Part shown: in pieces, positions 4,982-63,438 of the stretch | Position numbering within the stretch: the first letter of the stretch is position 1 | Layout: the number at the start of each line of letters is the position of its first letter | Origin: Eledone cirrhosa | Taxonomy: Eukaryota | Reading direction: 5' to 3' | Assembly (NCBI GenBank): GCA_964016885.1 | Contig: OZ024753.1 | Coordinates: 41,106,001-41,170,000, forward strand | Length of the DNA: 64,000 nucleotides | Program-made: the position numbers and the translations under genes | Notes under the pieces: model-generated | What the model was told of the DNA's origin: nothing | The model's database searches: none | The model's input: only the letters and a program-made list of their open reading frames with translations

Positions 4982-5337
<356 letters not shown>

Positions 5338-6092: not shown

Positions 6093-6322
6093 TATCTTTG
6101 TTTATTTTTATTTTTATTTGTACCCCTTCCACCTTGTACCTCCTTTTTTTTCTAAATGTCTCTCCACCACTCCCCCACACACCCTCGGAACTCTCTTCCC
6201 ACCCACTTTTCTCCTGAAGACGGGATTATGCCCGAAACGTCTCCCTCCCCATACTCTCAAGAGCGTGAAACTAATAAACCTTTGTTTGTACTGCCTCTCT
6301 GTTTTTGTGCCCGTTCTAGCTT

Positions 6323-8585: not shown

Positions 8586-8926
8586 TATATATGATAAAGA
8601 ACACAAGAGCGTCTACAACATCAAAAGATTTTTATTGGCTTACAATGTTTCTTCCTTACGTAACCGTAGGATTCGTCAGAGCTATAAAAGGGGTTTGATT
8701 GGTGTTATGGACTCTACCAACGAACATTCAAGAACAAATGTTCTTGAATGTTCAAATTGTTCAAATTGTTCAAATTGTTCTTGAATGTTCGGTTGGTAGA
8801 GTCCGTAACACCAATCAAACCCCTTTTATAGCTCTGACGAATCCTACGGTTACGTAAGGAAGAAACATTGTAAGCCAATAAAAATCTTTTGATGTTGTAG
8901 ACGCTCTTGTGTTCTTTATCATATAT
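8586..8926. mobile_element. Fold-back cassette (family C)
   Basis: ~150-bp near-perfect inverted arms with a central gttcaaatt tandem spacer; TA flank. Confidence 0.8.
8829..8879 (+). ncRNA. Type-I minimal hammerhead ribozyme (family C); mirror copy on - at ~8633-8685
   Basis: gct-CTGACGA-atcctacg gtta cgtaaggaa-GAAA-ca t tg-TA-agc. Confidence 0.7.
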
Positions 8927-14507: not shown

Positions 14508-14838
14508 TATACGATATTAATAAATGGAAACTATATTTATAAAACCATATTTATTTCATTGTACATATTTCAGGGATACCAAATTAAATTATGGTATGCC
14601 GTCATCAGACAAAATACAATATATAACAGTTTTACAAATAAGCTTTGACGTACCCAGATGGCTTCCAAAAATAATGGTTGCATTTTAAAAGGGTACGTCA
14701 AAGCTTATTTGTAAAACTGTTATATATTGTATTTTGTCTGATGAAGGCATACCATAATTTAATTTGGTATCCCTGAAATATGTATAATGAAATAAATATG
14801 GTTTTATAAATAGAGTTTCCATTTATTAATATCGTATA
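14508..14838. mobile_element. Fold-back cassette (family B)
   Basis: ~148-bp inverted arms 14508-14655 / 14691-14838, ~35-nt spacer. Confidence 0.8.
14730..14794 (+). ncRNA. Type-I minimal hammerhead ribozyme (family B)
   Basis: tattttgt-CTGATGA-agg c atacca..tggtat c cct-GAAA-tatgta-TA-atgaaata. Confidence 0.75.
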
Positions 14839-15964: not shown

Positions 15965-16306
15965 ATATATATGTATATACATATATATACACATATATCC
16001 TTATCCGAACTTTACTGAAGAAGGACTCTTCTGTCCGAAATATTGAGACCTCCTCTTGGAAAGCTAAAATAGTATCTGTGAAAATGAACAGAAACTCCAT
16101 CGCCTCCATCACCTTAACTTTTATTTTTGATTAATGCCCACAATCAAAACCCGATATATTAACATTCTAACGACACAAAACATATTGTTTGATGCGGAAC
16201 ATTTATTTAGATGTCTTCTTAATCACAATGAATGCATGTTTGTGTGTTGTGTACGACTGTATATATGTGGTGTGTACTACTCTATATATATATGTGGTTT
16301 GTATGG

Positions 16307-26482: not shown

Positions 26483-26547
<65 letters not shown>

Positions 26548-26672
26548 TGTTTCTTTATTAGCCACAAGGGCGCAACAAGAAAAGGGTACAATACAAAGAC
26601 ATGCCGGGGATTTTACATACAGTCGTGTAAAAAATATAAAAACAAACAATTTCAACAATCGAAATCCCCATT

Positions 26673-26732
<60 letters not shown>

Positions 26733-26790
26733 TGTTTCTTTATTAGTCACAGGGGCACAAAAGAAGGGGACAAATACAAAGGGGGAAGTT

Positions 26791-26840
<50 letters not shown>

Positions 26841-26868
26841 TAAATATAGATATAGATAGAGATATAGG

Positions 26869-27033
26869 TATATGCTATTTTCTAAAATGTACAGTGACTG
26901 ATCGGCCTGATTTGCATATTAGCAGACTGGCTGATCAGTCAGATCTGCATATGAGCAAATCCACTGATCAGCCAGTCTGCTAATATGCAGATCAGGCCGA
27001 TCACTCACTGTATATTTTAGAAAATAGCATATA
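26869..27033. repeat. ~70-bp-arm hairpin immediately upstream of a hammerhead
   Basis: tatatgctattttctaaaat...gctgatcagt / actgatcagc...attttagaaaatagcatata. Confidence 0.85.
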
Positions 27034-27051
27034 TTTTCACTAGCTCTGGCA

Positions 27052-27133
27052 GTTGGCAGGTGAACAGTGAGCTGTACTGATGAAGGGTAATACCCAGAAA
27101 CATTAGTGTCTACAGTTCTGTTTACATGCCAAC
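27052..27133 (+). ncRNA. Canonical type-I hammerhead ribozyme with long stem I
   Basis: gttggca.gtgaacag.tg.agctgta-CTGATGA-a gggt aat accc a-GAAA-ca ttag tg-TC-tacagtt.ctgtttac.a.tgccaac; predicted cut after C27110. Confidence 0.88.
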
Positions 27134-27310
27134 ACAAGAGCAACAATGAAGAGTTCATTCTACTGACATGGCTATAAAAATGAGGCTTGTTTGCATAATG
27201 GCAAACGAATCGAACGAAAAACTCAGATTACATTTATATACACATATATATATATATATATGTACACACACACACATATATATATATATGTATCTATATA
27301 TATATATGTC

Positions 27311-27345
<35 letters not shown>

Positions 27346-27367
27346 ATATGTACACACACGCACACAC

Positions 27368-27459
<92 letters not shown>

Positions 27460-27510
27460 CATACATACATGTATATATATATACATATATGTGTGTGTGT
27501 GTGTGTGTTA

Positions 27511-27591
<81 letters not shown>

Positions 27592-27618
27592 TATATATAT
27601 ATATATATATATATGTAC

Positions 27619-39535: not shown

Positions 39536-40927
39536 ATGTACACACTTCTCTCTGGTTTTTGGAAATACCTATTCCAAAAAGAGGAATACTTTGTCTTGAT
39601 TCTTGGCTTAGACAATGCTGGAAAAACGGTAAGAATGTAGAGGCTGAAATTTCCTTTTTATATATAAATTGTGTTTGTGTTGTTGTTTAGCTCCAGATCA
39701 GTCTCATCCAACAGACATGATCAAATATGTTCCAACTGTCACCATCCTGTCATCATTTGTGTTCTAGGGACTAACTTTACTTTCCAATGTATTCTTCTTT
39801 ATTTAAGAAGATAAACTGTGATTTAACCCTTTATCACCGTATCCGGCCAGAATTCTCTCACTTTTTTTCTGTTCAAACCAGACGTAACTGGCCACTCATA
39901 CTTATATTAAGGTATTTTTCTCAAAATAAATAATATCAAAATATCATAGATTCGATATTATGTGAAGTAAAGTCTTTACCATGAAAATATAGTGGTATAT
40001 ATAGAGTAATGTAAATGCTAACGGGTTAAGGGTGCTTTGACTGCTATTTCTAATAGTTTGAGTGGCCATATAGAGGTTCCTTAGGCTAGTAAAAGATTTT
40101 CACCGAAGAATCAATCAATATTTTATATATTTTTTAAAAACTTATTTTGTTAATTTTATTTTGATCTTGCAATATGTTCAATATGAAAGGAAGCTGTACC
40201 TAACTGGTCCAACCATGACTCTCTATTACAGACATACCTTGAACAAACAAAGACCAAATTCAACCGCAGATATAAAGGGATGAACCAAAGTAAAATAACA
40301 ACAACTGTAGGCCTGAACAGTGAGTAGCAATTCCAACATATCCAGGACTGCTGTGTGTATATATATTTATATATAGGAGATGTCAATATGAATGGACCTG
40401 TTATTTTTATCTAAACACACTTTTTCCAATTCCACCCCACCCGTCCCCTCAATCTATCTTATTTCTCATTCTTTCATCTGATGAAGGACTAGCATCCGAA
40501 ACGTTAAGACCCTCTTCCTGCTATATCAAGCATTAACCTAATATATCCCTTTCATATACTGTACCGATTGTGTTGTTATTTCTGTTTACCTTTTACATAC
40601 ATACATGTTGGAGACGCAGGACATGGCAGCGATAATGAGGGACAGAGACCGCTGTAGAGAACTCTTCCATGGATCTCGGGAATTTTACTCGCCTTAGATA
40701 GATAGATATATATATACACACATTTTATAAGTCTAAATTGGTTATTCACTCTTAATTTATTAAATCTTGAGCTCTGCAGTTTGTGCCATAACAGTGGATA
40801 TCGTAATCTACAAGGGTTGAAAACTCCTTCAGCCTTTTTGGGTTACTGTTAGACCAAGGATACTGATAAGCACTGAGCTTCTATAATCTTTACCAGGATA
40901 TATTGGTAAACTCCAATATAACCAGAC

Positions 40928-48588: not shown

Positions 48589-63438
<14,850 letters not shown>

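Follow-up and report, generated by a model that had tools for sequence, protein, structure and literature searches.

A Type I Hammerhead-like Motif and Its 165-nt Hairpin in Eledone cirrhosa as Parts of a Truncated, Probably Retrozyme-Derived Insertion

Introduction

The window analyzed here, a 64,000-nucleotide stretch of Eledone cirrhosa contig OZ024753.1, harbors a hammerhead-like motif directly preceded by a long hairpin, raising the question of whether the two form a ribozyme unit that functions at this locus or are the remains of a mobile element. The evidence makes it very probable that the locus is a truncated, neutrally decaying retrozyme copy, likely written into a (TA)n microsatellite by a Penelope-like reverse transcriptase (RT)-endonuclease, with the hairpin likely being a scar of that insertion. 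The motif of the original prediction is real, and the interpretation given to it is partly supported and partly wrong.

Table 1. Features of the window copy, in window positions; m-numbers are unit coordinates (see text).
Feature	Positions	Strand	Basis or remark
Type I hammerhead-like motif, 22-bp stem I	27052..27133	+	sequence, fold
Core C3-A9 (CUGAUGA)	27077..27083	+	sequence; pairing with 27101-27106 predicted in the lone motif
Stem II GGGU/ACCC, with A27084.A27096 at its base instead of G-C	27084..27096	+	
Stem III, 3 bp + UUAG loop; all 10 nt self-complementary, dimer-type	27100..27109	+	
GUC triplet	27108..27111	+	predicted cut between 27110 and 27111
Inverted arm, m257-363	26869..26975	-	95% identity to the L016 unit; 3 private changes in 107 nt
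Arm junction, the unit's own 49-nt hairpin	26927..26975	.	13-bp arms m257-269 and m293-305
Forward arm, m293-440 then m1-143	26963..27237	+	stops at the family's short 3' end
165-nt near-perfect hairpin	26869..27033	.	inverted arm paired with forward arm
(TA)n microsatellite	27235..27614	.	abuts the 3' end; likely insertion target

The Hammerhead-like Motif and Its Predicted Fold

The motif presents CUGANGA, GAAA (27097-27100) and NUH (GUC, 27108-27110) in this order around three helices and is open at stem I, as is typical for type I hammerheads, and its fold is better than that of 200/200 shuffles (z = −4.19). Stem II (GGGT/ACCC) spans 27085-27095 with a loop of 3 nt, in which the window copy carries the minor letter A27089 and most copies have a G. 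Stem I consists of 7 + 8 + 7 = 22 bp, 27052-27076 being paired with 27111-27133, with a UG bulge at 27068-27069 after the first 7 bp and one G.A mismatch. The sequence thus supports the type I hammerhead-like motif with a predicted cut after C27110, and the GUC site, the gggt/accc stem II and the ~22-bp stem I with a 2-nt bulge 7 bp from the core are all found as originally described. The claim of an intact core holds for the CTGATGA and GAAA letters, but not for the conserved 10.1-11.1 pair at the base of stem II. This pair is G-C in canonical and Penelope hammerheads, according to the available part of PMC4209133; as A27084 and A27096 flank stem II in the window copy, the position is A.A instead (alternatively, each strand of the stem is flanked by an additional A). 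In Rfam, no family reached its gathering score for the window motif, and at E up to 10 there was no hammerhead family among 79 matches, only miRNA-like and microsatellite chance matches.

Stem III alone is unstable, with a predicted +1.7 kcal/mol as a hairpin and −8.8 kcal/mol as a homoduplex of 27100-27109. In the lone motif, core residues 27077-27082 are predicted to pair with 27101-27106, rendering the active fold (−26.9 kcal/mol) 6.2 kcal/mol worse than the locked one (−33.1 kcal/mol). The locking helix has a probability of 0.998 and the active 15.1-16.1 pair one of 0.0001, with or without the 165-nt hairpin. U27117 and a loop 2 A are present in the sequence as letters that could make a loop 1-loop 2 contact.

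A Dispersed Family of Hammerhead-Bearing Repeats

By sequence comparison, positions 26869-27237 hold a single insertion, truncated at its 5' end, of a hammerhead-bearing repeat 435-440 nt long, for which coordinates were taken from a real unit at locus L016 (m1 is the first base after the predicted cut and m440 is C17). The copy-number search proposed as a check on the original prediction returned 1,305 exact matches (656 + 649) to the 34-nt hammerhead core in the 3.0-Gb genome, and 0 to a reversed control, whereas a genome search with 26865-27230 gave 2,331 candidates, the 40 that were scored being mostly 85-95% identical. To sample the family, the first 75 core-match places on contig C1 were taken, minus 15 already taken, leaving 60 loci; as the 15 removed include seven loci with two exact cores, two-armed and tandem cases are undercounted in this sample. 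At least two same-strand hammerheads are present in 7 of these 60 loci, and the cut-to-cut spacing in three tandem loci is 435, 436 and 440 nt. The family's tandem units thus lie within 150-450 bp and each carry a single type I hammerhead, the window locus having one hammerhead only. The unit has a GC content of about 37%, i.e., below 50%, its longest ATG frame is 93 aa within a 679-nt tandem stretch, and the architecture of the tandem loci and the 60 loci shows no terminal direct repeats around an internal region.

The A.A at 10.1/11.1 is found in 151 of 158 copies (129 loci) and is therefore a family trait, and the stem II version that lacks both As and would restore a canonical pair has 0 exact matches in the genome. 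Similarly, the stem III palindrome is fully self-complementary in 70/72 copies, and the lock is predicted in 71/72, with P(15.1-16.1) at most 0.006. The invariant core letters are retained across family copies, and the three most common stem I variants (64, 28 and 13 of the 158 copies) retain pairing; the next (10 copies) breaks it, two-sided compensatory changes are common in no stem, and among rare stem I variants pair-breaking exceeds pair-keeping (237 vs. 175 cells). A lower variability of the core in BLAST-picked loci (0.9% vs. 4.4%) was set aside, as these loci were chosen by matching that very region. Family variants were confirmed in sequencing reads (four runs, one study); no run listed as RNA was found, an outcome that speaks neither for nor against expression. 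The core pattern was found 0 times in metagenome and 0 times in viral contigs. A>G and T>C changes are balanced between strands (80 vs. 80), leaving no editing trace of an RNA stage.

Many family copies (L007:1828-2007, L101, L114, L118, L121, L124 and others) contain a 180-220-nt SINE-like stretch at about m70-125 of the unit. The start of 15/243 sequence blocks lies at m109, and a 16-nt deletion in the forward arm of the window copy (after 27214) falls within the same AT-rich hairpin. A local tandem array at L024:1710-2236 has grown out of 33 nt from the palindromic region of the unit.

Inverted Arms, Paired 3' Ends and (TA)n Targets

The window copy is not alone in having an inverted 5'-truncated copy beside the main copy, as an inverted arm is present in 36 of the 60 loci, which were picked without regard to the hairpin. 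The family has two fixed zones of 3' ends 30-40 nt apart, a short one at m135-152 and a long one at m165-186. Outward-facing arms are found in 35 loci, with both outer ends in the fixed zones in 24 and one or both elsewhere in 11. Each of these 24 loci has a short end on one arm and a long end on the other. Counting L106 and L107 once, since they appear to be duplicates of each other, leaves 23/23 mixed pairs (p about 1e-7), and BLAST-picked sets gave mixed pairs in 16/18 and 12/13. TATATA abuts fixed 3' ends in 53/70 cases but truncated 5' ends in 3/22. The family thus has a 30-40 bp tail on one side, and the window copy has the short end, with no tail.

These marks match those published for Penelope-like elements, in which a 5'-truncated copy lies in inverted orientation and a tail of 30-40 bp is present at one end only (10.1101/2021.04.23.441226). 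The Penelope-like protein of the anole cuts and extends both DNA strands in vitro, and the tail is set by the two internal positions on the RNA at which its RT begins (PMC11167929). Opposed arms of one locus have minor letters in common at 49/280 variant sites (17.5%), compared to 2,331/53,964 sites (4.3%) between loci, as expected if both arms derive from one template, and gene conversion could have contributed to this sharing.

Origin of the Window Copy and Its Hairpin

The 165-nt hairpin was found directly before the motif, as originally noted, with 18 nt between it and stem I. As both arms of the insertion are pieces of the same unit, the hairpin is one arm pairing with the other. Of its outer 71 pairs, 3 are non-Watson-Crick; its center, 23 nt long, runs in the orientation of the inverted arm, and the hairpin folds better than 200/200 shuffles (z = −20.09). 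The arms have no private change in common, the paired part containing one in the left arm and two in the right arm. The read assemblies (four runs, one study) contain no contig that spans the hairpin, which is known from the genome assembly alone. A reading of the hairpin as a miRNA precursor or MITE was rejected, given its retrozyme sequence and ends that vary between loci. Fold-back of a single cDNA was also rejected, since it predicts a sense-oriented center, the opposite of what the window copy has.

The origin that best accommodates these observations begins with a source locus that would give multimeric RNA. Given the lock predicted for a single motif, cleavage after C17 would require hammerhead dimers or the help of a protein, and the cut units may then be ligated into circles; the data are compatible with either a circular or a linear multimeric template. 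The enzyme would cut both DNA strands and prime one cDNA per end, normally at m135-152 and m165-186, yielding two cDNAs of the same polarity that could anneal only at the unit's inverted repeats. For the window copy, one cDNA would have extended from m143 to about m293-305, while the other would have begun internally at the AT-rich m363 (priming at m345-370 being presumed) and run to m257, both then being joined through the 13-bp arms. Having one hammerhead and no full unit, the resulting copy is most likely inert.

The outer end of the window's inverted arm at m363 is neither a tail site nor abutted by (TA)n. Similar ends (m345-397) are present in seven other BLAST-picked loci, six of which were found with the hairpin as query; among the 60 other loci, 1/60 has such an end (L146, m364), and the rarity of this internal end and its lack of an adjoining (TA)n count against the proposed origin. 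An arm without (TA)n at its outer end would be consistent with the notion, which concerns the hairpin step only, that a DNA template switch at the imperfect palindrome within the unit produced the hairpin once the copy was already in place. A switch between strands would yield an identical structure, down to the inverted orientation of the 23-nt center. The arms, however, have no private change in common, and 3/71 pairs differ, which corresponds to about the age of the whole copy; such divergence argues against a late switch but not against one soon after insertion. Moreover, the short arms of L005, L007, L011, L032 and L146 reach further 5' than the beginning of the long arm, indicating that a second template was needed. 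A template switch thus appears improbable, and priming of a cDNA from each DNA end is preferred for the hairpin as well.

Does the Motif Cleave?

The original prediction held that the motif may be active as a monomer. With its A.A mismatch at the base of stem II, palindromic 3-bp stem III and predicted core lock, monomer cleavage of the lone motif is unlikely as modeled. It is very unlikely, in particular, that a monomer-active, tertiary-stabilized hammerhead and the hairpin form a functional unit at the locus. The length of stem I (22 bp) would suit such a unit, and if the A.A is taken as the first pair, the motif has a 6-bp helix I, a 4-position helix II, a U at 1.7 and a loop 2 ending in A, a geometry that resembles canonical type I motifs as they appear in the available part of PMC4209133. 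Tertiary contacts are ignored by the nearest-neighbor energies used here, and an axolotl motif with U.U at this place still cleaved by 22% in 1 h as a monomer (PMC7229834). Against this stand the lock, predicted throughout nearly the entire family, and the palindrome in stem III, whereas the hairpin is not conserved, differing from copy to copy, and does not affect the predicted folding of the motif.

As a dimer, the motif has an active double hammerhead of −66.0 kcal/mol that is about equal to two locked monomers (−66.2), the best dimer fold being 8.6 lower (−74.6), energies that count against activity. The axolotl HHR_Amex2, which has U.U at the base of stem II, cleaves weakly alone and well as a dimer (PMC7229834, in the part available), and the hammerhead of the anole element cleaves only with the protein present (PMC11167929, likewise in part). 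It is conceivable, although rather unlikely, that the hammerhead is catalytically dead owing to the A.A and the lock, and hitch-hikes in a family whose spread does not require cleavage, a possibility that concerns the activity step only. Hammerhead mutants left insertion of the anole element in vitro unaffected (available part of PMC11167929), 8/9 Xenopus dimers did not cleave (available part of 10.64898/2026.07.22.740005), and the version with a canonical pair is absent as an exact match. A dead hammerhead is harder to reconcile with the retained core letters, stem III palindrome and stem I pairing of common variants, and with a slight excess of 5' ends at the predicted cut (5/243 blocks from 141 loci vs. 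about 1.5 expected, p about 0.02), which is itself weak, its interval having been set post hoc and 1-4 nt of microhomology blurring several of the five ends.

The preferred reading, in which cleavage occurs in dimers or with protein assistance, can be extended to a tentative model, which on the predicted folds we consider doubtful, of a self-locking hammerhead. Loop 3 would serve as both dimer palindrome and core complement, so that an RNA or circle on its own would stay inactive, and only a tandem dimer or binding of the Penelope protein would release the lock. If true, self-locking together with the strict pairing of short and long ends would suggest an enzyme that acts as a dimer and uses a single RNA to prime from both DNA ends, with priming at two set sites and cleavage tied to reverse transcription.

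Helper Elements and Genomic Context

There is no RT or GIY-YIG frame near the element in the window, and none within the unit; the window element is not an autonomous Penelope-like element. GIY-YIG domains are abundant in the genome (150 scored of 10,596 candidates), and one of them lies in an RT-GIY-YIG frame. An autonomous helper that shares sequence with the unit was found at 0 of 30 GIY-YIG loci examined, out of thousands, the sole neighbor among the 30 (L071/L091) being a separate insertion at the 3' (TA)n of a GIY-YIG element. Here a two-armed family copy (L091:2212-2579) sits in (TA)n at the 3' end of an RT-GIY-YIG element (L091:3822-6166), which is frameshifted, has a cysteine-rich linker, and has a common target but no common sequence with the family. 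By analogy with the description in the accessible part of 10.1101/2021.04.23.441226, this element appears Neptune-like.

With 30 loci examined among thousands, the unit might be a solo pseudo-LTR whose autonomous Penelope-like parent escaped the search, as retrozymes are reported to be pLTR-derived in the available part of 10.64898/2026.07.22.740005. When upstream flanks were compared all against all at the nucleotide level, however, copies continued 5' into the previous unit and not into an ORF, and the full unit is read through in many loci. A pseudo-LTR therefore seems most improbable, and a non-autonomous family served by a Penelope-like enzyme is retained as the better account.

The motif had also been described as antisense to the intron of a candidate gene. 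An exon-like stretch at 26395-26271 (−), about 470 nt to the left of the element, does have an open frame of 41 codons between good splice acceptor and donor sites, and an intron position is plausible. Searches for an exon upstream of it gave nothing, however, and it had no Pfam, homologue or Atlas hit. To the right, exons of an Arf-family GTPase, presumably ARFRP1-like, begin about 12 kb from the element (39.5-44.4 kb, +), and exons of an Smg4/UPF3 gene lie at 61.8-62.9 kb (−). Directly left of the element are two short related stretches (about 26483-26670 and 26673-26790, −), which have an AATAAA and a (TATC)n tail, like the 3' ends of retroposons.

A loose hammerhead core pattern has 18 matches in the window, compared to 2.2 expected. 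Two pairs of hammerhead-like motifs of other sequence are arranged back-to-back, 8648-8679 (−) with 8834-8865 (+) and 14568-14608 (−) with 14738-14778 (+), and are probably inverted insertions of other families. Minimal hammerhead-like motifs are found at 5079-5102 (−), 6214-6237 (+), 16015-16040 (+), 40478-40501 (+) and 55812-55838 (+), four of the five having one extra base after A9.

Comparison with Known Systems

Judged by those features that sequence can test, the family appears to belong to the non-LTR retrozymes, as these are described in the available parts of PMC7229834 and 10.64898/2026.07.22.740005. Like metazoan non-LTR retrozymes in these accounts, it has tandem units that are short and AT-rich, each carrying one type I hammerhead with a weak stem III, and occurs mostly as dispersed monomers that co-exist with Penelope-like elements. 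It also has in common with the axolotl HHR_Amex2 a mismatch at the base of stem II, which is U.U there and A.A here. It differs in its 22-bp stem I, and the window locus is less than one unit; the core is predicted to be self-paired, whereas it is predicted to be free in most metazoan retrozyme circles, and circular RNA, which is part of the definition of retrozymes, is a possibility for the present family. The literature search found no paper on the family or on A.A at 10.1/11.1, although the supplementary lists of PMC4209133 and PMC7229834 may contain such variants.

The window locus is most likely an inert transposon scar rather than a ribozyme with a regulatory role in the host, and the element belongs, as an ordinary member, to a known class. 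The family offers a test case for whether cleavage is at all compatible with A.A at 10.1/11.1 and a lock built into the hammerhead, and for how Penelope enzymes produce inverted arms and one-sided tails; as both points have been raised before, the gain would be incremental.

Hammerheads of Penelope-like elements, in the available parts of PMC4209133 and PMC6765202, are similarly of type I, have a palindromic stem III/loop 3 and an A after A9, and occur as opposite-strand pairs a few hundred bases apart with a predicted action as dimers. The family departs from them by lacking G10.1-C11.1 at the base of stem II and having a second extra A before G12, by a short stem II and a long stem I, and by having no attached RT-endonuclease frame. 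The insertions are alike as well: as far as the available descriptions of Penelope-like insertions extend, both display 5' truncation, partial tandems, an inverted 5' copy and, at one end, a tail of 30-40 bp, both use AT-rich or (TA)n targets, and in both, the RT starts would lie downstream of the hammerhead cut. The family differs in being non-autonomous, and the window copy in an inverted arm that starts internally and not at a tail site.
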